From a candidate division TA06 bacterium (GTDB taxonomy: Bacteria > Hydrothermota > DG-26 > E44-bin18): DNA of 64,000 nt. This document shows positions 1 to 30,219 of this stretch, piece after piece (position 1 is the stretch's first letter; each line of letters begins with the position of its first letter). The stretch is from the NCBI GenBank assembly GCA_004376575.1, contig SOJN01000148.1, positions 2 to 64,001 of the forward strand, read 5' to 3'. Made by a program: the position numbers and the translations under genes. The notes beneath the pieces were generated by a model. The model searched no databases. It saw only the letters and a list, made by a program, of their open reading frames with translations, and was not told the DNA's origin.

Positions 1-170
1 TCGTGTGCGGAAGACTTTTTGCCTTGACAAGGTGCCTTTTAATGGGTGCTTCGTCACCCTTCGATGAACTCGGGAGGCCGTGAAACGCCCGCTCGTAAAA
101 CGAGCCGGGCGGGCAGGCAATATCTTCGACAGTTCGGAGTTTGTAGTTTTGGGGAGTTCTCCAGGGGTTA

Positions 171-199
171 TTGACATGGCATTTTGTTTTTGTTAGTAT
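171..199 (+). promoter_or_regulatory. Sigma70-like promoter: TTGACA (171-176), 17-bp spacer, TAGTAT (194-199), upstream of operon 1
   Basis: Perfect -35 hexamer and near-consensus -10 with 17-nt spacing, ~45 nt upstream of the ATG at 245. A purine-rich RBS (aagggaagg) precedes the start. Confidence 0.35.
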
Positions 200-244
200 C
201 CATGTCTATCCGCAATTCACTAGGCTAATAAAGGGAAGGTAGAA

Positions 245-1489
245 ATGGCCGAAGAGACTAAAGTGAAAAGAAAAAGGATCGCAGCGACAGGGATGATGAA
301 AAAGATCATGGCAGACTATTTCTACGAGATGGACAAGGCTGTCAAAGCTGGAGCCCCGAAGGTCGCGTGGTGCACGAGCGTGGGGCCTGCCGAGCTCCTC
401 CGGGCAATGGGTTTCCTCGTCCACTTTCCAGAAAACCACGGGGCAATGCTTGGAGCAACAAGGACAGCCAACGATTACATACCACTGGCAAACGCAATCG
501 GCTATTCTCCTGATATATGTTCTTATCTTACCAGTGATGTTGGGGCTTATCTGAAGGGAGAAACACCTCTTTCTAAAGCATATCCTGGCATAGAAAACGT
601 GCCCAAGCCGGATGTTCTTGTCTTCAACACCAACCAATGCAGGGATGTACAGGACTGGTTTGGCTGGTATTCAAGGGAGTTCAAAGTCCCCATCATGGGA
701 ATCAATACTCATAGAGGAGTAAGGGAAGTCACCAAGTCCCACATCGACAGTGTGGCGAGGCAGATAGCTTCTCTGGTCCCGGGGCTCGAAGAGATATCAG
801 GAAACAAATTCGACCTGGAAAGACTTCAAGAAACTGTGGATCTCTCTCTTGAATGCAGCCAACTCTGGCGCCAGGTTCTGGAAACGGCTGCCAACATCCC
901 ATCTCCATTCACATTCTTCGACGGAACCATCCACATGGGTCCAGCAGTAGTACTGAGGGGAACAAAGACAGCTGTGGACTACTACAAGGCCCTTCTTGCA
1001 GAGCTGAATGACAGAGTCGATAAGGGAGTCGCGGCTGTGGAAGGTGAAAGGTACAGGCTTTACTGGGAGGGGATGCCGATCTGGGGTAGGCTGCGAGACC
1101 TCTCGGAGTTTTTCGCTCATCTGAAGGCCTCTGTGCTTGCATCCACCTACTGCAACTCCTGGATATTCGATGCATTTGACCCAAAGGAACCCTTCGGAAG
1201 CATGGCCAAAGCATACACACTCCTCTTCATTGTCCGCTCTGACGAAGAGAAAGAGAAGTACATAGAGGATATGGTCACGAAATTCAAGCTCGACGGCATA
1301 GTATTTCACGACTCCAAGACGTGTCCCAATAACACAAATAGTAGATATGGAATGCCGGAGAGGCTGCGGGAGAGTCTGGATGTCAACACTGTTACCATCT
1401 TTGGAGATCTGAACGACCTCCGCTGCTACTCGGAGGAACAATCAAAGACAAACATTGAAGCCTTCATCGAACAACTGGAGAGGAAATAA
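245..1489 (+). CDS. Stand-alone 2-hydroxyacyl-CoA dehydratase D-component / benzoyl-CoA reductase BcrB/C-family Fe-S protein (HgdB-like; double-cubane-cluster-protein-like)
   Basis: 414 aa. C-terminal ...GIVFHDSKTCPNNT... region typical of the HgdB/BcrB/BadD family. Multiple conserved Cys. Translationally coupled (TAATG) to the activase gene. No partner HgdA-like subunit is present upstream. Confidence 0.75.
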   Translation: MAEETKVKRKRIAATGMMKKIMADYFYEMDKAVKAGAPKVAWCTSVGPAELLRAMGFLVHFPENHGAMLGATRTANDYIPLANAIGYSPDICSYLTSDVGAYLKGETPLSKAYPGIENVPKPDVLVFNTNQCRDVQDWFGWYSREFKVPIMGINTHRGVREVTKSHIDSVARQIASLVPGLEEISGNKFDLERLQETVDLSLECSQLWRQVLETAANIPSPFTFFDGTIHMGPAVVLRGTKTAVDYYKALLAELNDRVDKGVAAVEGERYRLYWEGMPIWGRLRDLSEFFAHLKASVLASTYCNSWIFDAFDPKEPFGSMAKAYTLLFIVRSDEEKEKYIEDMVTKFKLDGIVFHDSKTCPNNTNSRYGMPERLRESLDVNTVTIFGDLNDLRCYSEEQSKTNIEAFIEQLERK

Positions 1490-2259
1490 TGGTCCTGGGA
1501 ATCGATGTAGGAGCCTCCGCAACAAAAGGAATTCTTCTCAATCAGGACCGGCAGGTTGTGTCCTTCTATGTAAGAGATTCAGGCGTAGACTTCAAACAAG
1601 CAGCGGAAGATACCCGCATGAACTGTATGAGTACTGCGGGAATAGCTGAGGATGATATCAAATACACTATTGCCAGTGGGTATGGGAGAAGGAGTGTCTC
1701 TTTTGCAGACGATATCAAAACCGAAATATCCTGCCACGCCAGAGGAGGTTACTTCCACCATCCCAAAGCCTGTACAATCGTTGATATTGGGGGCCAGGAC
1801 AGCAAAGTCATCAGAGTAGACGATGCAGGTAAGCCCATTTCCTTCAAGATGAACAGAAAGTGCGCGGCGGGCACAGGCGCATTCCTGGTGGAGACTGCTG
1901 CCAGGCTCTCAATTCACCTTGAGCAAATGGAAGGCCTCGCACGGGGAGCCCAGAAAGAGATAGAACTGGGATCATTCTGCACTGTCTTCACCAAGACAGA
2001 GATACTGGCCAGGATCTCTGAAGGAGCTTGCGCAGAAGACATAGCAAGAGGAGTATTTGGTTCGGTCATCAAGAGAATCATAGAGATGGATCCACTGACA
2101 GGAGATGTGGTGATGACCGGTGGAGTCATCGCACACAATCCTTTTCTTGGAGAGATGTTTGAGAAAAAACTGAACAGGAAACTGTTCGTCCCCGAAAAGC
2201 CGCAGTTTGCTGGAGCCCTTGGCGCAGCACTTTTCGCTCTTGAACAATCCGGAGGCTGA
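1489..2259 (+). CDS. CoA-substrate-specific enzyme activase (HgdC/BcrAD/BadFG-family ASKHA ATPase)
   Basis: 256 aa. N-terminal GIDVGASATKG (actin-fold phosphate-1), ISCHARG and KCAAGTGAF motifs typical of HgdC-type [4Fe-4S]-bridging activases. Confidence 0.85.
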   Translation: MVLGIDVGASATKGILLNQDRQVVSFYVRDSGVDFKQAAEDTRMNCMSTAGIAEDDIKYTIASGYGRRSVSFADDIKTEISCHARGGYFHHPKACTIVDIGGQDSKVIRVDDAGKPISFKMNRKCAAGTGAFLVETAARLSIHLEQMEGLARGAQKEIELGSFCTVFTKTEILARISEGACAEDIARGVFGSVIKRIIEMDPLTGDVVMTGGVIAHNPFLGEMFEKKLNRKLFVPEKPQFAGALGAALFALEQSGG

Positions 2260-2261
2260 GT

Positions 2262-4352
2262 ATGCTCGACTACCTCTTCAAACCAAAATCGGTTGCTGTC
2301 ATCGGTGCATCGAACAGAAAACTGACCATCGGCTACAGGATACTCCAGAATCTTTCAGAATCGGGATACAAGGGGCAGGTGTATCCTGTCCATCCCAAGG
2401 AAGATAAGATTAGAAACCTCAAGGCTTACAGGTCCGTACTTGATGTTCCGGCTGAACTCGATGTCGCGCACATAGTCGTGAAAAGTTCTCTTGTGCAGAC
2501 AGTGCTGGAAGAGTGCTGCAAGAAGAAGGTTAGATCAGTAATCATCAATACAGCAGGCTTCAGCGAGGTCGGTGAAGAGGGGAAAGAACTGGAGAGTAAG
2601 ATAGTGGACATAGCCCGAAAAGGGAATGTTCGCGTCTTCGGCCCGAACTGCCAGGGAATCATGAATTCTGACCCGGATGTGAGGGCTTACTGCAACTTCA
2701 CCTTCACAAGGATGAATCCGGGGACAATATCCATTGTCGCCCAGAGCGGTGGGGTTGGCGAGGTCATAAACCAAAGGCTCTACTCACTTGGTGAAGGGTT
2801 CAGGATGTATGCATCGACAGGAAATGCAGCAGACATAAGCATTCCCGAGATAATGAACTACTGGGCGAATGATGATGGAACAAAAGTGATAATAGTCCAC
2901 GTAGAAAGCCTTGCGGATCCAAAGAAATTTATGGATATAGCAGCTGAGGTCGCAAGGAAGAAGCCTGTACTGGGAATGAAAACCGGAAGGACGGTCGAGG
3001 GTGCCAAAGCCGTCGTCTCGCACACTGGAAGGCTTATGGGGGAAGGAATGCCCATAGAGCTGATGTTTGAGAGATGCGGAATTGTCAGTTTCCGTGACCA
3101 GGATGAGCTGTGCCAGGCGGCAATTGCGTTTGCAAAGCAGCCTCTTCCGGAGGGAAACAGAGTTGCCATTGTTACCAATTCCGGTGGACCTGGAATTATA
3201 GCCACTGATGGATGCATTGAGGCCGGGCTGGAGCTTCCTACGTTGTCGCACGATACGCAGACTACACTTAAGGAGAATCTTTTCCCGGAGGCCACTGTAA
3301 GCAACCCTGTAGATGTTCTCGCTACGGCAACACCGGAGCACTATGGGCTCACCCTCAGAGAACTGATAAGAGATTCCAAGGTGGACTCAATACTGGTCAA
3401 TTTTATCACACCTTTCTTTGTAGATTGCGAGGGTGTCGCACGCGAAATAGTGAAGGCCTCTGAGAAGAGAGAGAAACCCGTCATTGCCGTGATAATGACA
3501 GACAGAGAACAACAAGCAGAGACCTTACGAATCATCAGAAAAGGAAACATACCCACATACGACTTCGCTGAGATGGCCACAAAAACACTGCGGGCCATGG
3601 TGAGAATGTCTGATTATCATCAGAGAGCCAAGGAACCCTTTGAGCCATTTGGAGACGTAGACAAAAATGCTGCCCGTTCGCTGGTAACAACTGCCCTGAA
3701 AGAAAAGACAAACATACTTGGTGCGGAGCAGTGTGTGCAAATTCTCGATTTCTACCGGATACCACAGGCACCAGCACTGGTGGGAGCAAATTTGCACCAG
3801 TGTCTTTCGGCTGCAAGAGAGATTGGTTTCCCCGTTGCCCTGAAGGTCGATTCTGTGGACGTGATTCACAAAACCGAGGTCGGCGGCCTTTCTTTGAACA
3901 TTGCCAATGAACAATGTCTGAAAAAAGAGTTTAATAATCTCCGCGGCAAATTCAGGAACTATAGTCCGCAATATCTTGTCCAGAAGTACCTGACAGGCGG
4001 AATAGAGGTGATTGCAGGGGCCAAAACAGTAGACGGCGTCGGCCACGTCGTAATGTTCGGCCTGGGTGGTGTCCTTGTGGAGGTCATGAAGGACGTAGTA
4101 TTCCAGTTCGCACCACTCAATAGAACTGGAGCCCAAAGGATGATCAAATCTACAAAGGGTTATCCTGTTCTTAGAGGTTTCAGAGGCCGGGAAGGTGCAA
4201 ACACAGAAAGGCTCATAGAGATATTGATGAGAGTGTCACAGCTCGTGACTGAAGTTCCAGAGATAGCCGAGCTCGATTTGAATCCCATAATCGCGTACAA
4301 AGACCCTTCCAGGACAGTCGCGGTAGACGTGCGGATCAAGATCTCTGGCTGA
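2262..4352 (+). CDS. ADP-forming acyl-CoA synthetase (NDP-forming), fused alpha/beta (CoA-binding + ATP-grasp)
   Basis: 696 aa. N-terminal CoA-binding SVAVIGAS... domain (succinyl-CoA synthetase alpha-like). C-terminal ATP-grasp domain. Architecture of acetyl-CoA synthetase (ADP-forming). Confidence 0.8.
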   Translation: MLDYLFKPKSVAVIGASNRKLTIGYRILQNLSESGYKGQVYPVHPKEDKIRNLKAYRSVLDVPAELDVAHIVVKSSLVQTVLEECCKKKVRSVIINTAGFSEVGEEGKELESKIVDIARKGNVRVFGPNCQGIMNSDPDVRAYCNFTFTRMNPGTISIVAQSGGVGEVINQRLYSLGEGFRMYASTGNAADISIPEIMNYWANDDGTKVIIVHVESLADPKKFMDIAAEVARKKPVLGMKTGRTVEGAKAVVSHTGRLMGEGMPIELMFERCGIVSFRDQDELCQAAIAFAKQPLPEGNRVAIVTNSGGPGIIATDGCIEAGLELPTLSHDTQTTLKENLFPEATVSNPVDVLATATPEHYGLTLRELIRDSKVDSILVNFITPFFVDCEGVAREIVKASEKREKPVIAVIMTDREQQAETLRIIRKGNIPTYDFAEMATKTLRAMVRMSDYHQRAKEPFEPFGDVDKNAARSLVTTALKEKTNILGAEQCVQILDFYRIPQAPALVGANLHQCLSAAREIGFPVALKVDSVDVIHKTEVGGLSLNIANEQCLKKEFNNLRGKFRNYSPQYLVQKYLTGGIEVIAGAKTVDGVGHVVMFGLGGVLVEVMKDVVFQFAPLNRTGAQRMIKSTKGYPVLRGFRGREGANTERLIEILMRVSQLVTEVPEIAELDLNPIIAYKDPSRTVAVDVRIKISG

Positions 4353-4378
4353 GAACCTACAGAAACCCTCTGGAGGAT

Positions 4379-5950
4379 TTGGCAATGGGTGTACCCTGGC
4401 TCAATCTAGGCGAGATCCTCGTAGTGAATTCCAAAAAGTACAGAAACAAGCTGGCCCTCAAGGAAAGAGACAGAGCGTTCACGTTCGGGGAGCTGAACGT
4501 GAGGACCAACCAGCTCGCCAATGCATTGGTTTCAATGGGATTGAAAAAGGGCGAAAAGGTGTCATGCCTTCTGGAGAACTCCATCGAAATTGTCGAACTC
4601 TATCTTGCCGCTGCCAAAACGGGAATGGTGCTGAATCCTATCAACTTCAGACTGTCCCCTAACGATGTGGAATACATAGTGGGCGACTCTGACGCAAAGG
4701 CGATAGTAGCACACGAGGAGTTCACCCCCTGTATCGATGAGATCAGGGGGAATCTTCCAAACGTAAGAAACTTCGTCTCGGTAGGAGAAGAAACCCCTCC
4801 GGGATACGTAAACTACGAATCTCTGCTGGCTGAGTCCTCAGATGATGAGCCCAGGGCAAAGGTCAATCCTGAGGACAACTGGGTACTCCTCTACACCTCC
4901 GGGACTACAGGGAAGCCCAAGGGTGTTGTCCGTTCACACGAGTCCTATGTTGCGTTCTATTTGATAAATGCAATAGATTTCGGTTTCAGTGAACATGACG
5001 TCTGTCTTAACATAATGCCCCTATCCCACGTCAATTCTACCTTTTTCTCTTTCACCTTTACATACATCGGCGGAAGCCTCTATATCCATCCAGCCAGCCA
5101 TTTTGACCCTGTTGAAATCCTGGAAATCATCCAGAGAGAAAAGATAACCTTCATATCTCTGATACCTACTCATTACAATCTCATTCTTAATGTGCCAGAA
5201 GAAGAGAGAAGGGAATACGATGTCAGTTCTATCAAGAAACTTCTTTGTTCCTCGGCTCCTGCCCGGAAAGAAATGAAGAAAGCAGTGATGGAGATGTTCA
5301 AGGGGGTGGAGCTGTACGAAGGATATGGATCCACTGAAGCAGGCATAGTCACAGTTCTCAAGCCTTATGAACAGATGACAAAACTCGGTTCGATTGGCAG
5401 AGAGTCGTGCGGTACGAGTATGATCAAGATTCTTGATGAGCAAGGCAACCCCGTTCCAGTGGGACAGGTCGGAGAACTTTACTCCAGGGGTCCAATGCTA
5501 TTCGACAAATACCACAAACTTCCAGAAAAGACTGAAGAATCTTTCAGAGAAGGCTGGTTCACAGCAGGTGACATGGCAAAAGAAGATGAGGAAGGATACT
5601 TCTATATCGTCGATAGAAAAGACAACCTGGTAATCACGGGCGGGGAGCATGTCTATCCATCCGAGGTTGAGGAAGTGGTTGCGCGCCATCCGGCCGTTTT
5701 TGACGTGGCTGTAATCGGAGTTCCACACGAAAAATGGGGAGAAGCTGTCAAGGCAGTCGTAATCCTCAAGCATGGAAAGATGGCGACTGAACAGGAGATA
5801 ATAAAGTTCTGTGTTGGAAAGATGGCCTCCTTTAAGAAACCGAAATCTGTCACATTTATTGAGCCAGAGGAAATGCCCAGAACCGGTACAGGAAAGATAC
5901 TCCATCGGGAGTTGCGCAGGCGTTTCACAAAGAACAAGAATCAAGCGTGA
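4379..5950 (+). CDS. AMP-dependent acyl-CoA synthetase/ligase (candidate aromatic/alicyclic acid-CoA ligase)
   Basis: 523 aa. AMP-binding signature LLYTSGTTGKPKGV. C-terminal GEAVKAVV...KILHREL. Assigned to the ANL superfamily. Confidence 0.85.
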   Translation: MAMGVPWLNLGEILVVNSKKYRNKLALKERDRAFTFGELNVRTNQLANALVSMGLKKGEKVSCLLENSIEIVELYLAAAKTGMVLNPINFRLSPNDVEYIVGDSDAKAIVAHEEFTPCIDEIRGNLPNVRNFVSVGEETPPGYVNYESLLAESSDDEPRAKVNPEDNWVLLYTSGTTGKPKGVVRSHESYVAFYLINAIDFGFSEHDVCLNIMPLSHVNSTFFSFTFTYIGGSLYIHPASHFDPVEILEIIQREKITFISLIPTHYNLILNVPEEERREYDVSSIKKLLCSSAPARKEMKKAVMEMFKGVELYEGYGSTEAGIVTVLKPYEQMTKLGSIGRESCGTSMIKILDEQGNPVPVGQVGELYSRGPMLFDKYHKLPEKTEESFREGWFTAGDMAKEDEEGYFYIVDRKDNLVITGGEHVYPSEVEEVVARHPAVFDVAVIGVPHEKWGEAVKAVVILKHGKMATEQEIIKFCVGKMASFKKPKSVTFIEPEEMPRTGTGKILHRELRRRFTKNKNQA

Positions 5951-7554
5951 AGCATCACAGATCTGCCCCTTCTGCCCACCGTTCTGTCCCTTCCGACCGG
6001 CCGTGGTTTCGACACTGGCCCAGCGGTGCACCCAAACACATCGATTATCCGCAAAAGCCCCTCCCATTTCTTTTGGAGGACACGGCAAGAAGAAGCCCTG
6101 ACAGCATCGCCTTCAGTTCCGGCACAGATTCAATAGCCTTCTCAAAACTTTCGCAGAAATCGGACGCATTCGCCTCCGGGCTTCATTCAATCAACATACG
6201 CAAGGGCGACCGTGTACTTCTTCTTCTACCAAATATTATTGAGTTCGTTATCAGCTTCTATGGGACGCTTAAATCAGGTGCAGCCGTCGTGTCGCTTCAT
6301 CACCTTGTAAGGGAGGCTGAACTTTCAAAAGCCCTTGAAGAGAGTGAACCAAAGGCAGCAGTCATCCTGAGCAGCCTCTCCCCCGCTGAACGTGAGGTTC
6401 TGAATAAGTCCAGGGTGAGAGTCATAGAAGTTGGTGAACTGGCTGCAAGCAAATCGATCAGTTTTGGTCAATTCGTCTCGAAACGGAGAGCGTACCCACA
6501 CGTATCTGTTAGCGCTGATGACCCTGCCGTAATTCAATACACGGGCGCTACAACCGGCGCACCAAAACCAGCAGTCATGTCACATTTCAACCTTCTCGCC
6601 AATGCAGTGCAAAATGCAACCTGGTTTGGGTGGGATGAGAATGAAAAGGTTCTGGGAATTCTGCCGCTTTGCCATACATGGGGATGCTCGTGCTGTATGA
6701 ATTCCCCAATATACACAGGAGCAAAAACCATTTTTGTGGGAAGATTTGATCCTGAGGTTGTTCTCCAGACCATCGAAGCTGAACATGCAACCGTTCTCTA
6801 CGGATCAGCGACTATGTTCTCAGTGTTGTTGAATAGCCCCGGGATTGAAAGGTTCAACCTTTCCAGTCTCAAATGGGTGAAGGCAGGAGCCATGCCAATT
6901 CCTGTTGAACTCAAAAGGAAGTGGGATGAGAAGACAGGAATACCGCTGGTGCTAGGGTATGGCCTGACTGAGGCTTCCCCTGAGACCCACGACAGTCCTC
7001 CAAACAGAATCAGAGAGGGGACGATCGGAATTCCAATCATAGATACGGACGCGAAGATAGTCGATCTGGAGACGGAAAATGAATTAGAGCCCGGGAAACC
7101 AGGTGAACTGCTGATTCGAGGGCCTCAGGTTACAGAGCTTGGATACCTGAACGATGAGGAAGAGACAGAACGTGCACTCCGAGGAGGCTGGCTTCATACC
7201 GGAGACATAGGAATAATGGACGCGGAAGGTTATTTTACCCTTGTGGACAGGAAGAAGGACATAATCAAATACAAAGGCTACACCATATATCCTGTAGAAC
7301 TGGAAGATCTGCTCTATGGACACCCCGCAGTAAGAGAGTGCGCCGTGGTCGCAAAGAAACACTCTGAGTTTGGGGAGGTCCCCAAGGCATTCATCGTGTG
7401 CAAAGAGGATTCAGCGTTAACGGAAGAAGACGTAATTGAATTCTGTGAGAAGAGAGTTGCTCCATACAAAAAGATAAGAGAAGTCGAGTTTATTGAGTGT
7501 TTGCCCAAGACGCCGGTGGGCAAAGTTTTGAGAAGAAAGCTGAGAGACAAATGA
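5947..7554 (+). CDS. AMP-dependent acyl-CoA synthetase/ligase (FadD-like)
   Basis: 535 aa. N-terminus RPWFRHWPSGAPKHIDYP resembles the FadD N-terminus. AMP-binding motif IQYTGATTGAPKPAVMSH. GTG start overlaps the previous stop (GTGA). Confidence 0.8.
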   Translation: MKHHRSAPSAHRSVPSDRPWFRHWPSGAPKHIDYPQKPLPFLLEDTARRSPDSIAFSSGTDSIAFSKLSQKSDAFASGLHSINIRKGDRVLLLLPNIIEFVISFYGTLKSGAAVVSLHHLVREAELSKALEESEPKAAVILSSLSPAEREVLNKSRVRVIEVGELAASKSISFGQFVSKRRAYPHVSVSADDPAVIQYTGATTGAPKPAVMSHFNLLANAVQNATWFGWDENEKVLGILPLCHTWGCSCCMNSPIYTGAKTIFVGRFDPEVVLQTIEAEHATVLYGSATMFSVLLNSPGIERFNLSSLKWVKAGAMPIPVELKRKWDEKTGIPLVLGYGLTEASPETHDSPPNRIREGTIGIPIIDTDAKIVDLETENELEPGKPGELLIRGPQVTELGYLNDEEETERALRGGWLHTGDIGIMDAEGYFTLVDRKKDIIKYKGYTIYPVELEDLLYGHPAVRECAVVAKKHSEFGEVPKAFIVCKEDSALTEEDVIEFCEKRVAPYKKIREVEFIECLPKTPVGKVLRRKLRDK

Positions 7555-7653
7555 TGAATCACAAACTACGAATTACTAATTGCAAAAGTGTAAGAGGATC
7601 GATTTACGAATCCCGTCGCGTTTTTCGGCGTGGGGGTTTCCTTCCTTTCCCTC

Positions 7654-7682
7654 TTGACAACATTTTTGTGTCAAGTTATGAT
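7654..7682 (+). promoter_or_regulatory. Sigma70-like promoter (TTGACA-17-TATGAT) embedded in the palindrome CTTGACA-N9-TGTCAAG, upstream of bamA operon
   Basis: Near-consensus -35 and -10 hexamers with 17-nt spacing. The -35 lies inside a 7-bp inverted repeat (cttgaca / tgtcaag), suggesting an operator. Confidence 0.35.
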
Positions 7683-7772
7683 AACAGTCCGCTCTCTTTA
7701 TCTTCGATGGTTTCCCTAAGTGTTTGGTGCTGTTGGCTTTAAGCCGCCAAACTAAAGCACAGGAGGAAGAAA

Positions 7773-10219: not shown

Positions 10220-10225
10220 CGCCCG

Positions 10226-22825: not shown

Positions 22826-22835
22826 GGAGGATAAG

Positions 22836-24143
22836 ATGGCGAAGTATGAAACTGAACGGCTGAAGTGCTGGAACAAGGCGAAAGAGTTGAGAAAGAATTT
22901 CTACGAAGATTACGCGAAAGCCCATGAAAAGGGTGGCATAAGATGGGCTGGAGGTGCGTGGTCCATAGGTTCGATTCCGGCCGGACTGGGAAGAGACGTC
23001 TACCCGATCACTTCTGAGCCGTACGCTGCCAGCATTGCATTTGACAGACCCTTCTCAGAAGAATGCCTCGCGGCGATCGAAAAAGAAGGGTATGCCAGGG
23101 ACCTGTGTTCATACATGCGCAACTACTGGGGAAGTGTTTTGTTGAACAAGTACGCCTTTGGCGGAGAGTTTCCCACTCCTGACTTCATCTGGCAGGATCA
23201 TATATGCTGCAGCCACGCAAAATGGTACCAGGTGGTGAAGGACATAGAAGAAAAGGACATACCCTACTTCTGCCTTGATGTGGCTGTTGGTCCTTACAGC
23301 GAGTTGAATGAGAACAAATTGAACTATGTCGTGGGCCAACTGCACGACGCCATCGAATGGATGGAGAAGCTGACAGGCCGGAACTACCAAGACGAACTGC
23401 TCATAGAGGCGGTCAATGATGAGTGCAGATCAACATCTGTCTGGGCTGAGGTGTGCGCGCTGAACAAGGCAATACCAGCACCTCTCGATGAGAAATCCAT
23501 GTATTCGCTTTATGTCCTGGGCACTCTCAAAAAGCACTCCAAGGATATTGCAGACTTCTACGAGGAGTTGAGAGATGAGGTGAAGGACAGAGTTGACCGG
23601 GGTATTGCCGCTGTTGGAAATGAACGGTGCCGGGTGATGACTGACACTCAGCCTCCCTGGGGATTCTTGAAGATATTTAGATATATGGAAAAGTTCGGTT
23701 GCATCTCTGTCGGTTCTCTCTACACCTTTGGCCTCATCGGAATGTGGGAAGACAAACCTGACGGGACGTGGGGGCCCAAGACGACCCCGCAGCAAAAGGG
23801 GATTGAAATCAAGGACAGGGATGAGGCCTTGAGAATCATTGCTGAGTGGAATCTGTCTAAGCCAGAGTGGCAGCACTTCTATCATCCAAAGCACAAGACC
23901 GACATGATGGTGAGAATCGCCAAAGAGTGGAAGCTGGACGGGGTGATGCTTCACTACAACAGGGGATGCGAGGGATTGAGCATTGGGATAGCAGAGAACA
24001 GACTTGGCATACAGGAAGCTGGATTCCCTGTCATGACCTTCGAAGGAAACATGGGAGATGAAAGAGAGTTCGATGAGGCGAAAACCGTGGGTAGAATCGA
24101 CACATTCATGGAAAGTCTCGGATTCAGCAAGGATGAAGAGTAG
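22836..24143 (+). CDS. bzdO: Benzoyl-CoA reductase beta subunit, BcrB/BadE/BzdO-like
   Basis: 435 aa, HgdAB/BcrBC family (…[19 protein letters not shown]…[13 protein letters not shown]…). Size matches BcrB/BzdO. Confidence 0.7.
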
Positions 24144-24149
24144 GGGGAT

Positions 24150-24929
24150 ATGATGGTGACAGCAGGAATAGACGTAGGCGCGAAGAGCGTGAAAGTGGTA
24201 TTACTTGAGAGTGGCAAGGTGACGTCCAGGAGTCTCAAAACAATTGGCCTCAACACTGAGGCGGCCATTAACGAAGCCTTTGAAAGCGCCCTCTCCAACA
24301 ACGGAATCAAACGTGAAGAGATCTCAAAGATCATAGCCACAGGCGCGGGCAGAAAAGAGGTGAAGTTTGCCGACGGAGAATTGACAGAAGTCGGTGCCTC
24401 GGCAAAAGGTGCCCACCATCTCCTCGACTCGGCCCGCACTGTGATAGACATTGGAGCTGAGGAAGGTCGGGCCATAAAGGTAAACGAAAAAGGTAAGGTG
24501 GCTGACTTCGCCATAAACGAGAAATGTGCCGCGGGCGCAGGCGCCTTCACTGAAGCGATGTCAAGAGCTCTGGAGGTTGACCTGGAAGACTTCGGAAAGC
24601 TCTCGCTGAAGTCCCAGAAGGCCATTCCCATGAACGCACAGTGTGCTGTGTTTGCAGAAAGCGAAGTCGTTTCTCTTATCCACGCCAAGACCCGCAAAGA
24701 GGACATAGCCCGGGCAGTCCACGATGCGATAGCAGACAGGATAGTTTCTATGGCAAGACGTGTCGGTATCGCAAAGGACGTTATCGTGGTAGGAGGAGTT
24801 GCAAGAAACATTGGTTTCATAGATTCACTGAAACGCACTCTCGAGACTGACGTGGTTGTGCCAGAATACCCTGAGTACGCAGCAGCACTTGGAACCGCCC
24901 TACATGCGGCAGAAACCGGAGGTCAATAA
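24150..24929 (+). CDS. bzdP: Benzoyl-CoA reductase ATPase subunit (delta, BcrD/BadG/BzdP-like; activase-family)
   Basis: 259 aa. GIDVGAKSVK N-terminus and KCAAGAGAF motif. ASKHA ATPase of the HgdC family. Confidence 0.75.
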   Translation: MMVTAGIDVGAKSVKVVLLESGKVTSRSLKTIGLNTEAAINEAFESALSNNGIKREEISKIIATGAGRKEVKFADGELTEVGASAKGAHHLLDSARTVIDIGAEEGRAIKVNEKGKVADFAINEKCAAGAGAFTEAMSRALEVDLEDFGKLSLKSQKAIPMNAQCAVFAESEVVSLIHAKTRKEDIARAVHDAIADRIVSMARRVGIAKDVIVVGGVARNIGFIDSLKRTLETDVVVPEYPEYAAALGTALHAAETGGQ

Positions 24930-25810
24930 TGTCGCAGGATTTCTGGAGATGGACTGAATACAGAAAGACTATGCCTGATGTTGACTGGAAGAAGGCTCAA
25001 ATCCTGACGGCAGGTGTCGATGTGGGATCGGTTAGCTCTCAGGCGGTCGTCATGGCGGACGGGAAGCTCTTCGCGTACAGCAACATGAGGACAGGTTCAG
25101 ACAGTCCGGAGTCTGCTCAAAAAGCGATGGACTGGGCCCTTGAAGAGACAGGACTCACCCTGGATAAAATTCAGTTCACTGTGGGTACAGGATACGGCAG
25201 GGTGAACGTCCCCTTCGCCAATAGGGCGATTACTGAGATTGCATGCCACGCAAGGGGAGCAAACTATTTGTACGGCTCTTCAGTCCGGACTGTTCTCGAC
25301 ATGGGCGGTCAGGACTGCAAGGCGATTCGCTGCGATGAGAGAGGCAAGGTGACAAACTTTCTCATGAACGACAAGTGTGCCGCGGGAACCGGCCGCGGCA
25401 TGGAAGTTTTTGCTGAGCTCCTGCAGGTACCCATAACCGAGATCGGTCAGATGTCTCTGGACATAGACGAAGAACCAGAGCCGGTATCATCGACATGCGT
25501 CGTATTTGCTAAATCTGAGGCGACGGGTCTGCTGAGGGAAGGATGGCCCAAGAACAAGGTGATAGCAGCTTACTGTTCAGCAATGGCTCACCGGATTGTC
25601 ACGCTCCTGGAGAGAATCGGGATTGAAAAGGATTTCGCCATTACCGGTGGCATCGCAAAAAATCCAGGTGTGGTGACACGGTTAAACAAGGAACTGGGCA
25701 TCGAACCACTCAAGACCGAATATGACACGCAAACCGCAGGGGCCATCGGCGGCGCCCTTTTTGGATACGCACTGGTGAAGAAAGGCAAAGCAAAGGCAGG
25801 TGCGAGTTGA
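24929..25810 (+). CDS. bzdQ: Benzoyl-CoA reductase ATPase subunit (alpha, BcrA/BadF/BzdQ-like)
   Basis: 293 aa. GVDVGSVSSQ, IACHARG, KCAAGTGRG motifs. The second, non-identical activase-type ATPase implies a heterodimeric ATPase module as in BCR, not a homodimeric dehydratase activator. Confidence 0.75.
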   Translation: MSQDFWRWTEYRKTMPDVDWKKAQILTAGVDVGSVSSQAVVMADGKLFAYSNMRTGSDSPESAQKAMDWALEETGLTLDKIQFTVGTGYGRVNVPFANRAITEIACHARGANYLYGSSVRTVLDMGGQDCKAIRCDERGKVTNFLMNDKCAAGTGRGMEVFAELLQVPITEIGQMSLDIDEEPEPVSSTCVVFAKSEATGLLREGWPKNKVIAAYCSAMAHRIVTLLERIGIEKDFAITGGIAKNPGVVTRLNKELGIEPLKTEYDTQTAGAIGGALFGYALVKKGKAKAGAS

Positions 25811-26094
25811 TAGCAAACTACGGGTACATGGACGGCAGCGGCCAGTACTTCATAAAGATAGACTCAGACAAGTGCGATGGATGTGGAGACTGTGTGACCG
25901 CGTGCCCGGCTGGGGTCCTTGAGGTGGGTGAAGATGAGAACGACCCATTCCGTGAGGAGCCTGTGGTCAAAGTCACTGAGGATCAACGAAAGAAGATCAA
26001 ATACTCATGCGGGCCCTGTAAGCCTGTTGCCAACAGACCTCCTCTCCCCTGTATGGCAGCCTGCAAGCCCGGAGCGATCGAACACTCCTGGTAA
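25807..26094 (+). CDS. bzdM: 2x[4Fe-4S] ferredoxin, Alvin-like with extended second-cluster loop (BCR electron donor, BzdM/Fdx-like)
   Basis: 95 aa. Cluster 1 CDGCGDCVTACP. Cluster 2 CGPC-x10-C-x3-CKP. TTG start overlaps the bzdQ stop. Confidence 0.75.
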   Translation: MIANYGYMDGSGQYFIKIDSDKCDGCGDCVTACPAGVLEVGEDENDPFREEPVVKVTEDQRKKIKYSCGPCKPVANRPPLPCMAACKPGAIEHSW

Positions 26095-26109
26095 GAGGGG
26101 ACTCCAAAG

Positions 26110-28605
26110 TTGAAACTGGTCATAGACGGTCAGACCGTAGAGGCTAGACCGGAAAGCACAATTCTTGAAGCAGCTCTAGAGACACAGATATATATCCCTG
26201 CCATCTGTTACCATCCGGATTTGCCGACATTCTCAAAGGCTGAACCCTCGGGGGGGATATTTGGGGGAGTTGAGAAAATCACTTCAGAAGAAAATGCAAA
26301 ATACCAAGGGTGCGGTCTTTGCATTGTTGAGGTGGATTGGAGAAGTGGTCCAGTCCTTTCATGTGAAACAGAAGCAGAAGACGGTATGGTCATCAAAACA
26401 AATACAGAGAAGATCAAGGACAAGAGACAGGAAGCTCTGGCCAGGATACTCAAAGACCACCCAAGAGCCTGTCTCCTCTGCACTCAAAAAGAAGGTTGTT
26501 CCAGGGAACCCTGTTCAGAGGACGTCCCTATGGAAGAGAGGTGCTGTCCATTACTGGGCAAGTGTGAGCTCGAGAAGATCGCAGACTTCGTCGGAGTCCC
26601 CCAGAACCCGGGCAAGTATAAGTCTCTGAGAATCCCGTTGCTGGACGACGAGCCGTTGTTCAAGCGAGATTACAACCTCTGCATTGGCTGCATGAGGTGT
26701 GTCCGCGCATGCAAGGACCTGAGAGGCGTTGAAGCGCTTGGATATGTAATCAAAAACGGCACCACATACCTGGGCACCATCAATGGATCGAAGCTCAAGG
26801 ACGCCGGGTGCAGGTTCTGCGGAGCCTGCGTTGAAGTGTGTCCCACAGGTGCACTGACCGACATCAAGCCTTTCACCCTTTCCGAGAAAGAGAAAGTTCT
26901 TGTCCCCTGCAGGGACGCTTGTCCGGCAGGAATAGACGTACCGGCGTATGTCCGGGCAATAGGCAGAGGCGAAACGGACAGAGCCCTCTCGATTATTTAC
27001 GAAAGCGCTCCTCTTCCAGGAATTCTGGGCATGGTTTGCCACCATCCATGCGAAGATGTCTGCAGGAGGAAAGAGATAGAAGAACCCATCTCCATATGCG
27101 GCATCAAACGATTTGCTGCAGAAAATGGAAAGCTGACGCACGCCTCTCCCCTGCTTCCCTCTACCGGCAAAAAGGTCGCGGTGATAGGTTCTGGTCCAGC
27201 AGGGCTCAGTACTGCCCATTTCCTGAAGCTGAAAGGCCATCAAGTTACTGTTTTCGAAAGAGAAGAGAAACCAGGAGGAATCCTAAGATACGGCATTCCC
27301 GCGTACAGGCTGCCTGATGCAGTCCTGGACAGCGAGATATCAACTGTGCTGGACGGAATTGAATTGAAGACTGAAGCTGCTCTTGGTCAAGATTTCCAGC
27401 TGAAGGACCTGGCAGACGAGGGATTTGACTGCGTGTTTCTCTGCACCGGAGCCGGAGAGAGTAAGAAACTTGAGATACCGGGCTCAGACAGTGAAGGTGT
27501 ATATTGGGGCCTTGACTTCTTGAAGGAGATTAACAAGGGTGACAAACCAGCTCTCGGCGAGAACGTCGCGGTCATAGGCGGAGGAAATGTCGCCTTTGAC
27601 GTTGCGCTGTGCTGCCTCAGGCTGGGAGTTCGACAGGTGACCGTCGTCTGCCTGGAGTGTAAATCTGAGATGCCCGCTTTCAATAAAGAGATAGATACTG
27701 CCAAAGAGGAAGCGGTCAGAATAATGAACTCCTGGGGACCAAAAGAGATAGAGTGCGCGGATGGCAAAGTCAAAGGAGTCTTCCTGAAGAAATGCACAGA
27801 GGTGTTCGACAAGAAAGGGAACTTCTCTCCTCAATACGACGAATCAGTCGTGGAACACATCGATGCTGACAATGTGATTCTTTCCATAGGCCAGGAGCCA
27901 GATGTGGATCTCATCTCTCTCCCTGGCATGCCAGAACACGATTCTTCAAGACTCCTTAGAGCAGAAGATACGAGAACAAACATCCCTACAGTGTTCGCTG
28001 GCGGGGATGCCACAAGAGGTCCTTCATCGGTAATTGAGGCTGTTGCAGACGGTAGGAAGGCCGCCGACGAAATCGACAGATTCCTGGGAGGCAGGGGCCC
28101 CGTTCGTACTTCCGGGCCTCAGCCCGCGAACCCTGAGATTGGTCGGGACGAACAGTTCTGTGAGCGTCTCAGAGTGGCAATGCCATGCGCTGATCCGTAC
28201 GAGAGAGGAAAATCGTTCACCCCCATAGAACTTGGATATGGTGAGAAAGAGGCAGGCATCGAAGCAAACCGTTGCCTTCAATGCGACCTGAGACTACAGA
28301 TTACTGAAGCTACTCTTCCTCCTGAGAAGTGGATACTTCTTGATCGTGAAGCTTTGAATGAAATCCCTGAAAAGGAAGGCGTGTACCAGCTGGCAGGCGA
28401 GAAGAAGATGGTGACAAAGATAGCCGGAACTCAGAATCTTCTACAATCACTCACGGCCGAACTGGACAGTGAAAATGGGAAGTACTTCTGGTTTGAGGAG
28501 GACCCGATGTACACGAAACGCGAAAGTGAGCTCATACAACAACATCTCCAGAAGTACGGTGAACTGCCAGGAGCAGGTGAAGAAGACCTGGATGACCTCT
28601 TCTAG
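26110..28605 (+). CDS. Multi-cluster iron-sulfur flavoprotein: NuoG-type 2Fe-2S/His-Cys3 4Fe-4S N-terminus + 2x[4Fe-4S] ferredoxin domain + GltD/SudA-type NAD(P)H:FAD oxidoreductase + C-terminal extension; candidate NAD(P)H:ferredoxin oxidoreductase for BCR
   Basis: 831 aa. HPRACLLCTQKEGC (H-x3-C-x2-C-x5-C). CIGCMRCVRAC and CRFCGACVEVCP. GltD-like C-x3-CP...VCHHPCEDVCRR. Dinucleotide folds KKVAVIGSGPAGL and VAVIGGGNVAFD. C-terminal ~170 aa includes an extra CLQC pair. Confidence 0.7.
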   Translation: MKLVIDGQTVEARPESTILEAALETQIYIPAICYHPDLPTFSKAEPSGGIFGGVEKITSEENAKYQGCGLCIVEVDWRSGPVLSCETEAEDGMVIKTNTEKIKDKRQEALARILKDHPRACLLCTQKEGCSREPCSEDVPMEERCCPLLGKCELEKIADFVGVPQNPGKYKSLRIPLLDDEPLFKRDYNLCIGCMRCVRACKDLRGVEALGYVIKNGTTYLGTINGSKLKDAGCRFCGACVEVCPTGALTDIKPFTLSEKEKVLVPCRDACPAGIDVPAYVRAIGRGETDRALSIIYESAPLPGILGMVCHHPCEDVCRRKEIEEPISICGIKRFAAENGKLTHASPLLPSTGKKVAVIGSGPAGLSTAHFLKLKGHQVTVFEREEKPGGILRYGIPAYRLPDAVLDSEISTVLDGIELKTEAALGQDFQLKDLADEGFDCVFLCTGAGESKKLEIPGSDSEGVYWGLDFLKEINKGDKPALGENVAVIGGGNVAFDVALCCLRLGVRQVTVVCLECKSEMPAFNKEIDTAKEEAVRIMNSWGPKEIECADGKVKGVFLKKCTEVFDKKGNFSPQYDESVVEHIDADNVILSIGQEPDVDLISLPGMPEHDSSRLLRAEDTRTNIPTVFAGGDATRGPSSVIEAVADGRKAADEIDRFLGGRGPVRTSGPQPANPEIGRDEQFCERLRVAMPCADPYERGKSFTPIELGYGEKEAGIEANRCLQCDLRLQITEATLPPEKWILLDREALNEIPEKEGVYQLAGEKKMVTKIAGTQNLLQSLTAELDSENGKYFWFEEDPMYTKRESELIQQHLQKYGELPGAGEEDLDDLF

Positions 28606-28615
28606 GTGAACCGTT

Positions 28616-29770
28616 ATGCATCGTATTGAGAAACTGCAAAAGACCCTGGCCGACCACAGTCTAGTTGCGGCGTTTCTTCTTTACCACCGTGACGTTTACT
28701 ACTATGCAGGTACTGCAAGACCAGCGTCTCTTGTTGTGACTCCGGATGATGCAGTCTTGTTCGTCAGAAGGGGAGTTGATTGGCTCGGCGACGAACCGAA
28801 ACTGAGTGATGTCCGTGAGGGAGGCTTAGGTTCAATCCTTGATTGGCTGAAGGCCAAAGGTATACAGACGGGTAACGCAGGAATCGAGATGGATATCGTA
28901 CCTGCAGACATGTACGTGAAGCTGAAGATGCTCCTCCCCGGTTTGGAGTTTGTGGATGTTTCCACGTTCATAATCGAGCAAAGGCTCATTAAAGACAAGG
29001 ATGAGATAAAATCAATAAGGGGAGCATGCCGAATGGTCGAACAATCACACAAACACCTTCCCGATATCCTGAAAGAAGGGATTACTGAGCTTGAACTCTC
29101 AGCAGAGCTCGAATCGGTAGCTCGCAGGCACGGCCACGAAACCTTCGCAGTACTCAGGAAGAGGTTGGAGACGGAGATGGGCTACGCACTCATTCTCTCT
29201 GGTGAAAGCACCAGAGCGATCGGTGGTTATGGACAGGTCGTAACAGGAAAAGGGTTGAGTCCTGCTTTTCCGTATGGCCCTTCGCTTAGAAAGGTGAAAC
29301 GAGGGGATGTGGTCGTGTTTGACATCGCAGGCCTGAGCCAGGGATACCACTCAGATCTGGCAAGAACCTACTGTCTGGGGAAAGCGTCTGATGAGATGCT
29401 GGAAGCCCATGCAGCACTTGTTGCCATCCAGTCGGCAATGCTGGACGCTGCAAAGCCCGGGGTACCGGCAAATCAGATATACAAAACTGCAATCAAGAAA
29501 GCAGAAGCAATGGGTTGGGCCGATTACTTTCAGGGACACGGTAAAGAGAAAGGGACTTTTGTCGGGCATGGACTGGGTCTTGAGATAGACGAGCCGCCGC
29601 TTCTGAGCCCCAAAGATGGAACTGTGATCGAAGAAAACATGACATTCACCACAGAGCTGTTCATCGTGCATCCTGAGTTTGGCGAGGTTAAGCTGGAGGA
29701 CACTCTGCTCATGACGAAAGACGGGCCGGAACTTTTGACGACATTGGAACGGACAATAACTGAAATATGA
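28616..29770 (+). CDS. M24-family metallopeptidase (Xaa-Pro aminopeptidase/creatinase-like)
   Basis: 384 aa. Pita-bread fold motifs HGLGLEIDEPP, ...NMTFTTE.... Start is 11 nt after the upstream stop, so it is likely co-transcribed with the bzd operon. Confidence 0.8.
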   Translation: MHRIEKLQKTLADHSLVAAFLLYHRDVYYYAGTARPASLVVTPDDAVLFVRRGVDWLGDEPKLSDVREGGLGSILDWLKAKGIQTGNAGIEMDIVPADMYVKLKMLLPGLEFVDVSTFIIEQRLIKDKDEIKSIRGACRMVEQSHKHLPDILKEGITELELSAELESVARRHGHETFAVLRKRLETEMGYALILSGESTRAIGGYGQVVTGKGLSPAFPYGPSLRKVKRGDVVVFDIAGLSQGYHSDLARTYCLGKASDEMLEAHAALVAIQSAMLDAAKPGVPANQIYKTAIKKAEAMGWADYFQGHGKEKGTFVGHGLGLEIDEPPLLSPKDGTVIEENMTFTTELFIVHPEFGEVKLEDTLLMTKDGPELLTTLERTITEI

Positions 29771-29848
29771 ACTACAAACTGCAAACTGCGAAAGAAATAA
29801 CCGAAGTACAAAGCGAAAAAGACCCGTGGTGTCGTTGGAGACCACGAT

Positions 29849-30219
29849 GTATTTTTCGTCCTGAGCGGGAGCGAAGGATCCCCTGAGCCCGAGATTGCTT
29901 CGCTATCGCTCGCAATGACAGTACCTCTATTCCGTGTAGCCCAGGAAGTTCAGAGTTTGGAAGCTGACGACTGACAACTGATAGCTTCTGCTGTGTCGTA
30001 CAGCCTACAGCGAGCCAAATAGGTCCAGCTGAAAAAGACCCACACTGTCGATAGACAGGGTAAGGTATTTTTCATCCTGAGGGAACGCCGAAGGACCTCC
30101 TGAATGCTTCTATGTCACTGGATGAGACATATTTGGTCCTTCATCGGCGTGAGCCGATGGAGGAGAAGCCATGCCTGCCGCGTTTCTCGTGAAGCGAGAT
30201 ACACGGGGCCTGCCCCGCC
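29849..30219. repeat. Repeat-dense intergenic spacer: two GTATTTTTC(G/A)TCCTGAG...GAAGGA elements (29849-29925, 30065-30110), a GATTGCTTCGCTATCGCTCGCAATGAC hairpin, GTACAGCCT(A/G)CA...AATAGG motifs, and an inverted family-A2 copy (30170-30219)
   Basis: Direct sequence comparison. 30170-30219 is the reverse complement of the A2 elements at 20412-20450 and 21611-21650. 29891-29921 matches 14631-14655. Confidence 0.65.

Follow-up and report, generated by a model that had tools for sequence, protein, structure and literature searches.

Arrangement and structure of the A repeats

The window, that is, the whole 64-kb stretch of DNA analysed, belongs to a TA06 bacterium and carries 49 genes, including those of operon 1, an HTH-GNAT regulator gene followed by BCR-like genes, and pheS. 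Two types of short non-coding repeat units, A1 and A2, were found in it, all copies being intergenic. At least five copies had been claimed in an earlier note, and all five sites hold the described sequences within a few bases; the description as imperfect palindromes of REP/MITE type, dispersed in intergenic DNA, was likewise supported.

The first copy is an A1 at 69-118 on the plus strand, upstream of the predicted operon-1 promoter (171-199). It comprises a leader CTCGGGAG (69-76), a hairpin GGCCGTGAAACGCCC (76-90), a second hairpin GCTCGTAAAACGAGC (91-105), which can be extended to an imperfect palindrome at 86-111, and a tail CGGGCGGGCAGGC (106-118). Of the operon-1 borders claimed, only the 5′ one carries an A unit; the 3′ border (14558-14965) has other repeat families. 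A diverged array of three to four hairpins follows on the minus strand (16575-16657), which in minus-strand order reads degenerate hairpin CCCCGTGGAACGAC, CAGGCAGGC, hairpin CCCCCTTGGCAAGGGGG, GTCCGTGAAACGAGC, GGCCGTTAAACGGCC and tail CGGGCGGGAAG. Its 16578-16613 copy is inverted and A1-like as described, with a complementarity to A1 of only 78% over 45 nt, but it lies between methyltransferase and peptidase genes and not at an operon-1 border. This array, together with a terminator-like module and other modules, forms a composite mosaic block (16464-16786), which artificially lengthens the N-terminus of the ORF at 15571-16524.

The regulator gene has copies on both sides, as the earlier note stated. 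On one side, a composite plus-strand element (20397-20469) consists of a leader (A)CTCGGGGGACAGCC (20397-20410), an A2 hairpin (20411-20441), GGCAGGC (20440-20446) followed by ATGG, and a terminal module GATTTTTTGGACTTTTGACC (20450-20469); this A2 (20411-20450) lies between divergent promoter-like sites, with -35 hexamers at 20382 (minus strand) and 20638 (plus strand). On the other side, between the regulator gene and the first BCR-like gene, a composite insertion of 193 nt was found on the plus strand (21481-21674), in which an A1 (21561-21610) and an A2 (21610-21649; hairpin 21610-21640, tail CAGGCAGGC) stand head to tail and have the junction GGGCAGGC in common. Both are nested within an outer element with the ends GTCACCACGAGG... 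and ...CCTCAGAATGACA, and the block alters the last residues of the regulator. The last copy is a minus-strand A2 (30169-30215; hairpin 30178-30208) with GGCAGGC at either side, upstream of the predicted pheS promoter (30413-30440). An adjoining hairpin (30209-30245) was considered as a third unit and rejected, being the remnant of a small ORF.

Over 50 nt, the A1 copies at 69-118 and 21561-21610 share 96% identity, and the A2 copies, compared over 20411-20447, 21603-21649 and 30169-30215 (minus strand), share 87-93%. A 40-nt A1 pattern allowing up to three mismatches matched twice in the window and never in 100 shuffles, while a 23-nt A2 pattern had three exact matches and none in shuffles. 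Moreover, GGCAGGC was 11 times denser in intergenic DNA, where all eight of its matches fell inside A units.

Each unit consists of a G+C-rich imperfect palindrome, with a conserved CGT-loop-ACG top, and a linear motif on its 3′ side that is likewise conserved, (C)GGGC(R)GGCAGGC / GGGCAGGC. The A2 hairpin measures 31 nt, the main A1 palindrome ~27 nt and the small hairpins 15 nt. Units are modular and stacked head to tail, joined at GGCAGGC, both in the window (21561-21649) and on contigs L002, L005, L007, L008, L011 and L097. The hairpin potential claimed earlier is real, with single-stranded DNA folding z-scores of −2.0 to −3.8 for units and −5.0 for a four-unit array on L008; for RNA, the z-scores were −2.2 to −2.8 for A2 and only −0.8 to −1.6 for A1. 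Paired changes that keep the hairpin (TCTCGC/GCGAGA to TCTCAC/GTGAGA) were found in L006 and L100. Pairing in the 15-nt hairpins amounted to 88% of cells, compared with 75% in shuffles, and none of 500 shuffles reached this value; the statistic is inflated because the set was partly chosen by hairpin scan. Rfam 15 gave no match at gathering score over the whole window and none at E-values up to 5 within 14500-30500.

Occurrence in other genomes and differences between relatives

The presence of the repeats outside this contig was confirmed by exact A2 cores on 10 JGI metagenome contigs, which are otherwise unrelated and have only the repeats in common with the window; the neighbours of A2 there include nadA, mraZ, thiazole synthase, riboflavin synthase, MarR-family and tRNA genes. 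Searches of control loci from other phyla (1.26 Mb), of viral contigs and of 185,579 GTDB species-representative genomes yielded no A2 core. Between genomes with only ~73-88% identity in their orthologous DNA, A2 copies have 97-100% identity, a high value that is partly an ascertainment effect, because the metagenome copies were found by an exact 20-base pattern. Several independent assemblies are broken inside units (L001, L007, L008, L009 and L097), as expected for multi-copy repeats.

Among relatives 88-98% identical to the window, whole units or blocks are gained or missing at orthologous sites. At the 20.4-kb site, no hairpin was found in L100 and L101, one in the window and three in L097, and in this series the joins always fall at a G-run, then CAGGC. 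L100 has an additional array, of a short A1 and an A2, at a place occupied in the window by a 44-nt spacer. Furthermore, the 193-nt and ~320-nt blocks are missing from relatives of 88-96% identity. In particular, the ~320-nt block (16464-16786) is present in L100 (a 96-98% relative) and replaced by ~16-20 nt in L102 and L095, while the 193-nt block is missing from L095 and L096, whose regulator and first BCR-like genes overlap. The 193-nt block is flanked by an imperfect 8-9-bp direct repeat (GAAACAAAG / GGACAGAA), and the empty site has a single GAGACAAAA; for single units, the target duplications consist of the G-run only (GGG or GGGG). These duplications are short or imperfect and so do not settle the mechanism. 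Finally, the A2 at 30169-30215 is common to L092 (a 98% relative) and absent at that position in L093 and L095, which have an A2 in the same spacer, in opposite orientation, ~200 nt upstream.

Between strains of 95-98% identity, element edges coincide with the breakpoints of indels and of a 2-kb deletion. The suggestion that the repeats mark recombination junctions thus holds in a weaker form, at strain level, but not for island borders. A elements are the main source of structural difference in the region between such strains, and their consequences there comprise a split operon junction, rewritten gene ends, a destroyed small ORF and the bounded 2-kb deletion.

Comparison with known repeat classes

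REP and BIME elements of enterobacteria and REPINs of Pseudomonas are mobilised by RAYT (TnpA-REP) Y1 transposases. The A units resemble them in being extragenic and non-coding: they are imperfect palindromes of ~27-31 nt, or 15 nt in the case of the small hairpins, the A2 hairpin and the main A1 palindrome falling within the ~20-40 nt of this class. Next to each palindrome stands a conserved linear motif, and the units cluster into mosaics with other motifs. The unit number per locus varies between strains (0, 1 or 3 at the 20.4-kb site), as it does at E. coli BIME loci (PMC3333891). However, the hairpin foot of REPs is preceded on its 5′ side by a conserved GTAG (PMC3333891), while A units have a 3′ GGGCAGGC / (G)GGCAGGC and no GTAG beside any of them. 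The units of BIMEs and REPINs form pairs, inverted or alternating (PMC2817692, PMC3333891, PMC3337134), in contrast to the A arrays, which all run head to tail on one strand. REP and REPIN copy numbers exceed 100 per genome (PMC2817692); the A copies seen amount to five arrays in 64 kb plus 10 further contigs. The hosts also differ, being proteobacteria for REP, BIME and REPIN and an uncultured TA06 bacterium for the A units. Moreover, REPs and REPINs are accompanied by a RAYT (Y1 transposase) gene of their own, present in single copy between repeats, and no such domain was found in the 49 window genes or in the scanned ORFs beside units on L002-L011. The A repeats are without the REP hallmarks of a 5′ GTAG, inverted pairs and a RAYT gene in view.

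Modular MITE-like repeats are known as BOX in S. pneumoniae (boxA-boxB(n)-boxC), Correia/NEMIS, ERIC and RUP. Like these, the A elements are short and non-coding, have a variable number of internal modules between more constant ends (leader ...TTCGA..CTCRGGAG, terminal GGACTTTTGGACTTTTGACC), contain nested insertions and affect the ends of neighbouring genes. No sequence similarity is known to link them to BOX, Correia, ERIC or RUP, though, and the internal A modules differ in being hairpins, each probably mobile by itself, with a fixed motif of 7-8 nt at the joins. Terminal inverted repeats and regular target duplication, which define MITEs, are not clear in the A units, which are themselves palindromes; the duplications are GGG/GGGG for single units and an imperfect 8-9 bp for the outer 193-nt block. 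MITEs moreover share their ends with a full-length IS of the same genome, and no IS lies in the window.

Regarding IS200/IS605 ends and PATEs, the A hairpins likewise have a short conserved sequence beside the foot, and insertion apparently takes place next to a specific short sequence also carried by the element, which would explain the head-to-tail arrays. This likeness is one of presumed logic only, as neither tnpA or tnpB nor a complete parent element was seen. The A arrays also recall those of integron attC sites, in which folded imperfect palindromes likewise share one orientation and every junction has a conserved core of 7 nt. Integrons have GTTRRRY core sites, attC sites of 57-141 nt attached to genes and an intI gene nearby. 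An integron cassette array was ruled out by the GGCAGGC junction in place of GTTRRRY, by units of 15-45 nt without ORFs, and by the lack of any intI/integrase domain in the window; furthermore, the A arrays are dispersed and not at one platform. A CRISPR array, in which unique spacers of similar length separate identical repeats at regular distances, was also ruled out, given that the units abut without spacers and differ from each other, and that no cas domains occur in the window.

Alternative explanations and proposed mechanism

That the units are assembly artefacts or chimeric joins in a metagenome contig is exceedingly improbable. Contigs do often end in A repeats, but the same units occur at the same positions in independent assemblies (JGI 3300022538; GCA_030590645.1 and GCA_030671015.1, NCBI; ERZ25073595, ENA; SRR7716471, Logan), with flanking genes intact and syntenic. 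The earlier note proposed the repeats as junctions of an aromatic-degradation island, and a reading of them as scars or recombination sites of its horizontal insertion could draw on the confinement of all five arrays to the left, catabolic half of the window, on the strain-level breakpoints at unit edges and on the closest homologues of the BCR-like protein being scattered over many phyla. Nevertheless, it is already largely refuted by synteny and retains very little probability, since relatives without units have kept the gene order across all spacers that bear repeats in the window. The order oxidoreductase, M24 peptidase, pheS, pheT and hprK is kept in relatives down to ~65-70% nucleotide identity, which have no A2 at the pheS site, and the region from 10.5 to 31.8 kb is wholly syntenic in an 88% relative with almost no A units there. 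Because synteny predates the repeats, the island-junction idea was not supported. Moreover, the borders are without integrase, transposase or tRNA gene, with transposase, HUH and integrase domains found in none of the 49 window genes, and elsewhere the units occur in housekeeping contexts. The supposed enrichment at the island (five arrays in ~2.9 kb of left-half spacer vs. none in ~1.1 kb of right-half spacer) was not significant (P ~0.2) and is explained by the amount of spacer. The A repeats have no bearing on the acquisition of the aromatic-degradation genes.

Another possibility is a function in cis, the units acting as terminators, operon insulators or 3′-end mRNA stabilisers, the last being a role of some E. 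coli REPs. Stable G+C-rich hairpins are predicted, units lie between transcription units, and an A1+A2 pair separates the co-oriented regulator gene and first BCR-like gene; even so, such a function appears improbable. In intrinsic (Rho-independent) terminators a G+C-rich hairpin is directly followed by a T-run, but the A hairpins have none (their tails being GGCAGGC) and no A unit was reported by the terminator scan; separate terminator-like modules follow operon ends (14928-14951, 29815-29865 and 30031-30081). An insulator or terminator role is unsupported. Furthermore, the 69-118 and 30169-30215 copies are upstream of predicted promoters (operon 1 and pheS), the 20.4-kb copy is between two divergent ones, the orientation relative to flanking genes is mixed, and orthologous sites in close relatives work without units; in the 88% relative, the regulator and BCR genes overlap with no spacer, so that the element is not needed there. 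The units might instead be protein-binding sites, either for a factor that structures the nucleoid, comparable to gyrase and IHF at BIMEs, or as an operator for the adjacent HTH-GNAT regulator. The nested palindromes, the very high sequence conservation across species, the copies flanking the regulator gene and the location of several copies in untranscribed promoter-distal DNA are consistent with this. It is nonetheless quite improbable as an explanation, considering that A units adjoin many unrelated genes, that the regulator gene of L095 and L096 has none on either side, and that the unit number at one site changes from 0 to 1 to 3 among close strains; host protein binding would in any case be compatible with mobile repeats, as it is for BIMEs.

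Taken together with the comparisons above, A1 and A2 probably represent one lineage-specific family of non-autonomous, REP/BIME-like mobile hairpin repeats, which build intergenic mosaics in the TA06 bacterium and its relatives. Units of this mobile family would be copied to new intergenic places, and preferentially into units already present, at their G-run/CAGGC junction; since each new unit supplies a further junction of this kind, arrays would grow head to tail. Copying may proceed via a single-stranded hairpin intermediate, by an enzyme presumably encoded elsewhere in the genome (HUH/Y1 'RAYT', IS200/IS605 type or equivalent), and other small elements would nest around the arrays, giving rise to fast-evolving intergenic mosaics. 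The effects on neighbours (separated operon genes, rewritten gene ends and deletion breakpoints) would be by-products. Against mobility, no enzyme was found (0 of 49 window genes), and the G-run-bounded unit indels could equally have arisen without transposition, through unequal recombination between arrays or through gene conversion. A bolder proposal, rather unlikely, is that of an undescribed REP-like system, in which single hairpins of 15-36 nt insert site-specifically into the G-run/CAGGC junction of earlier units and extend them head to tail, with a divergent HUH/Y1 or other enzyme conserved across TA06-related species; if true, it would explain the high identity of A2 relative to that of the genomes.

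The mobile-repeat reading would extend the REP/BIME-type genome 'parasites or tenants' to the uncultured phylum TA06, with a different grammar, in which units follow one another as direct tandem repeats joined at a 3′ GGCAGGC. On the practical side, the A repeats break metagenome assemblies and produce false ORF extensions in MAG annotation, and they could serve as strain markers. Given a complete genome, the series of 0, 1 and 3 units at the 20.4-kb site offers a defined substrate for finding the enzyme.

Structure of the repeat units

The sequences that an earlier note had assigned to a family of hairpin-forming intergenic repeats were present at all five sites, as confirmed by direct reading. 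Unit A1 (CTCGGGAG-GCCGTGAAACGSCC-GCTCGTAAAACGAGC-CGGGCGGGCAGGC) was located at 69-118 and 21561-21610, with copies 96% identical over 50 nt, and comparison of repeats within the window placed unit A2 (CCCCGTGTATCTYGCTTYRCGAGARACGSGGCAGGC) at 20411-20450 and 21610-21649, as well as reverse-complemented at 30169-30215. Moreover, a diverged array of three to four hairpins occupied the minus strand at 16575-16657. Degenerate patterns matched twice (A1) and three times (A2) in the window, and never in 100 shuffles. When fold prediction was applied to single-stranded DNA, the units surpassed shuffled sequences with z-scores from -2.0 to -3.8, and a four-unit array reached -5.0; when it was applied to RNA, A2 was significant but A1 was not.

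The hairpins followed a common design, with an almost invariant CGT...ACG top over three variable base pairs, as in the small hairpins GGC-CGT-GAA-ACG-GCC, GCT-CGT-AAA-ACG-AGC and CCT-CGT-GGA-ACG-AGG. The same frame was found in A2 (CCC-CGT-G[...]A-ACG-GGG), whose loop holds a second hairpin (TCTCGC-TTC-GCGAGA); in the metagenome contig L006 and the relative L100, this inner stem was TCTCAC/GTGAGA instead. Over 17 distinct 15-nt hairpins, in which the three outer pairs varied on both sides, 88% of the cells were paired compared to 75% after shuffling (0 of 500 shuffles as high), a statistic that is supportive rather than decisive because the set was partly picked by a hairpin scan. Furthermore, (C)GGGC(R)GGCAGGC appeared directly 3′ of every unit, and the density of GGCAGGC in spacers was 11 times that in genes, with all eight intergenic occurrences inside units. 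The units were stacked head to tail on a single strand with no gap, in the orders A1-A2 (window, L007, L011 and L097), short hairpin-A2-A1-A2 (L008) and A2′-A2-short hairpin (L002), frequently starting with ...TTCGA(N)CTCRGGAG and ending with GGCAGGCATG-GACTTTTGGACTTTTGACC. The A units are a real, well-defined repeat family.

Units in relatives and in other genomes

Syntenic contigs of relatives were reached via homologues of PheS, the HTH-GNAT regulator and the C1 peptidase. Their identity to the window was about 98% (L092), 96-98% (L100 and L101) and about 95% (L097), the more distant ones being L102 (87-96%), L093 and L095 (84-94%) and L094 (about 65-70%). Coding DNA aligned end to end with them, and the breaks fell exactly at the repeat-bearing spacers; this comparison is the most informative line of evidence. 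At the 20.4-kb site, L100 and L101 lack a hairpin and ...TTCGTGGGG is joined directly to TCAGGCGTGGACTTTTGG, the window has the sequence ...CTCGGGGG[ACAGCC-A2 hairpin-ACGGGG]CAGGCATGG, and L097 has A2, then 38 nt more (two small hairpins) and then GGGCAGGC. These form a series of three steps, in which the join always fell between the G-run and CAGGC, likewise on L002 and L008. The spacer that follows the peptidase gene contained an extra CTCAGGAG-hairpin-A2 array in L100 compared to 44 nt in the window, and an A2 variant was found at positions 72-107 of L100.

Larger differences were found as well. L095 and L096, whose regulator and BCR genes overlap, had no counterpart of a 193-nt block (21481-21674) in which an outer element encloses A1+A2; on either side of the block, the window carries the empty-site sequence as an imperfect direct repeat of 8-9 bp. 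The block 16464-16786 was absent from L102 and L095 and present in L100, while 18378-20396, carrying rsgA and a methyltransferase gene, was missing in L100 and L101, with the right breakpoint at the A composite's left edge. Upstream of pheS, the minus-strand A2 was common to the window and L092 and all the modules to its left differed, despite PheS being 99% identical. L093 and L095 had no A2 at this site and an opposite-orientation A2 about 200 nt upstream, and none was found in the L094 upstream spacer. Overall, A2 was 97-100% identical between genomes that were 73-88% identical elsewhere, a figure favoured by the pattern search for the metagenome copies and not for those found by synteny.

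Outside these contigs, the exact A2 core had no match in 185,579 GTDB species-representative genomes, and neither A1 nor A2 matched viral contigs. Rfam gave no match when the whole window was scanned at gathering score, nor at E up to 5 over 14.5-30.5 kb, and a full-text literature search with three sequence strings returned no paper. The exact core appeared on 10 JGI metagenome contigs that had only repeat modules in common with the window, beside genes for a solute symporter, LTD-domain protein, HEAT-repeat protein, NadA, MarR-family regulator, HAD hydrolase, MBL-fold protein, riboflavin synthase, thiazole synthase, MraZ and NrnA, and one tRNA gene. Five independent contigs ended inside a unit. 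A BCR-like protein was returned from 80 loci of GTDB representative genomes in many phyla (identity ≤76%), which showed that this gene says little about the organism; as a negative control, blastn-short found no unit in 1.26 Mb of such loci from other phyla. From this distribution on contigs, genomes and control loci, the family is dispersed, multi-copy, lineage-restricted and not bound to aromatic catabolism.

Genomic setting and nature of the units

The window corresponds to positions 88-64087 of JGI contig Ga0247413_1109984 (sample 3300022538), and its proteins are labelled 'candidate division TA06 bacterium' in NCBI and UniRef. This TA06 population was sampled in JGI 3300022538, 3300022540 and 3300022542 and in ENA ERZ25073595 and ERZ25074855. 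It contains an acyl-CoA/β-oxidation-type operon (245-14557; HGD-D protein, BcrAD-type ATPase, CoA ligases, hydratases, thiolases and dehydrogenases), a four-subunit BCR/HGD-like cluster with an oxidoreductase and an M24 peptidase (21695-29770) and, from 30466, housekeeping genes including pheST, hprK, uppP, rpoN, lptABC, kdsA-D-like genes, pyrG, rpsA, ispH, cmk, scpB, murJ and rpsT. No transposase, integrase, HUH or Cas domains were found among the window genes by domain searches, and no tRNA genes were present in the window. The suggestion that the repeats mark junctions of an aromatic island was contradicted by the synteny kept in relatives without units, as well as by units that lie in housekeeping contexts elsewhere, and their enrichment at the island was not significant (five arrays in about 2.9 kb of spacer vs. 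none in about 1.1 kb). A weaker form, that structural differences between strains sit at A elements, holds.

The same note had considered transcriptional insulators. The copy at 69-118 precedes a TTGACA-17-TAGTAT site (171-199), the 20.4-kb composite lies between divergent 11-of-12 promoter-like sites (20382-20355, minus; 20638-20666, plus), and the 30.2-kb copy between two terminator-like modules upstream and the pheS promoter-like site (30413-30440) downstream. No A unit was followed by a T-run, and orientation relative to the neighbouring genes was mixed. According to these consensus scans, the placement is more consistent with DNA settling at the least harmful sites than with a transcriptional device, and the evidence leans against an insulator role.

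Being short, palindromic, intergenic, multi-copy, lineage-specific, strain-polymorphic and prone to nesting, the units behave like non-autonomous repeats of the REP/BIME or MITE type, and the note's comparison with REP/MITE elements was right in kind. As the G-run/CAGGC junction recurs and each unit carries the motif, head-to-tail growth has a simple account: insertion beside a short sequence that the element itself regenerates would produce such arrays, the proposed junction at A2 plus GGGGCAGGC lying between the G-run and CAGGC. The same logic operates in IS200/IS605-type single-strand transposition and, in formal terms, in integron cassette arrays. Arrays undergoing gene conversion or unequal exchange with one another could produce the same indels, and no enzyme was seen. 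Membership in the RAYT-REP family proper is not supported, since 5′ GTAG was absent beside the units, the units are direct and no RAYT gene was in view, whereas that family is defined by 5′ GTAG and by units arranged as inverted pairs (PMC3333891, PMC2817692, PMC3337134). The family is of moderate interest, mainly for work on bacterial repeats and for MAG assembly and annotation.

Other repeats and genes touched by the mosaics

Further repeats were observed. A hairpin repeat, TCCTCCNTCGGCTCACGCCGATGAAGGACCAAA, was found at 14659-14691 (+), 30132-30164 (-) and L100:1-43, the window copies being 97% identical, with both ends in common and interiors of about 28 and 105 nt, which suggests nested insertion. 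The repeat AGATTGCTTCGCTATCGCT/CGCAATGACA was intact at 29892-29920, partial and reverse-complemented at 14860-14872, and split at 14632-14650 and 14731-14743, where an 80-nt insert holding the TCCTCCNTCGGCTCACGCCGATGAAGGACCAAA repeat cuts it and GCT is duplicated at the join. Terminator-like modules at 14910-14975 (-), 16640-16672, 29815-29865 and 30031-30081, also in L004, L006 and L008, had conserved flanks (GAAAAAG... and ...GTATTTTTCGTCCTGAG) and variable stems, that at 14928-14951 being scored bidirectional; apparently they form a further repeat family supplying operon-end hairpins. The repeat GTCATTCTGAGG...CGAAGAATC(C/T)GCTT occurred at 63914-63975, in L007 and L010, and as a split copy (21481-21520 / 21648-21674) forming the outer shell around A1+A2 between the regulator and BCR genes. 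Downstream of rpsT, 53-nt direct repeats (56142-56194 and 56262-56314; 92% identical) both ended in TTGACATTTGACA (tandem -35-like hexamers). The module AGAGTTAATCCTGAGG...GTCGAAGGG had a single copy in the window (about 16735-16780) and about four tandem copies in L100, a 96-98% relative (L100:1932-2180 vs. window 16685-16696). Most direct-repeat families in the window came from a 1639-aa FG-GAP/Ig-like repeat protein (58415-63334) in which about 1.6 kb is duplicated internally at 73-79% identity.

Genes were also affected. A 69-codon ORF (MTPEELKKQGWQKRF...TVKTIYTRKLS), situated upstream of pheS and matching neither Pfam nor NCBIfam, was intact in L093 (3109-3375) and L095 (18978-19187), while only its 3′ part was left in the window (30209-30300) and L092, the rest being replaced by A2 and other modules. 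A supposed third unit, 'A3' (30209-30245), was discarded, as in L093 and L095 it constitutes the 3′ part of the intact ORF. Likewise, a 397-codon ORF directly next to the largest array, on L008, was rejected as a candidate transposase, having no Pfam/NCBIfam match and a low-complexity translation that looks spurious. The methyltransferase ORF at 15571-16524 (-) had 317 codons compared to 263-289 in relatives because reading continues into inserted DNA, and the regulator (20805-21506, +) ended in ...PLETKVTTRDRI in the window vs. ...PLETKPLTGE in L095. PheS (gene region 30466-33776) was a long form of 509 aa, which we take to be the archaeal/eukaryotic type, with its nearest named homologues in candidate division WOR-3 (about 53-55% identity). 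The independent contigs L092, L093 and L094 all ended within the 831-aa oxidoreductase gene (window 26110-28605), at 26852 for the first two and about 26668 for the third, suggesting a multi-copy or strain-variable segment. Finally, L102 matched window 11442-20180 in successive segments of 88.5%, 96.0%, 94.3% and 86.7% identity with switches at repeat-bearing spacers, which suggests homologous exchange between populations.
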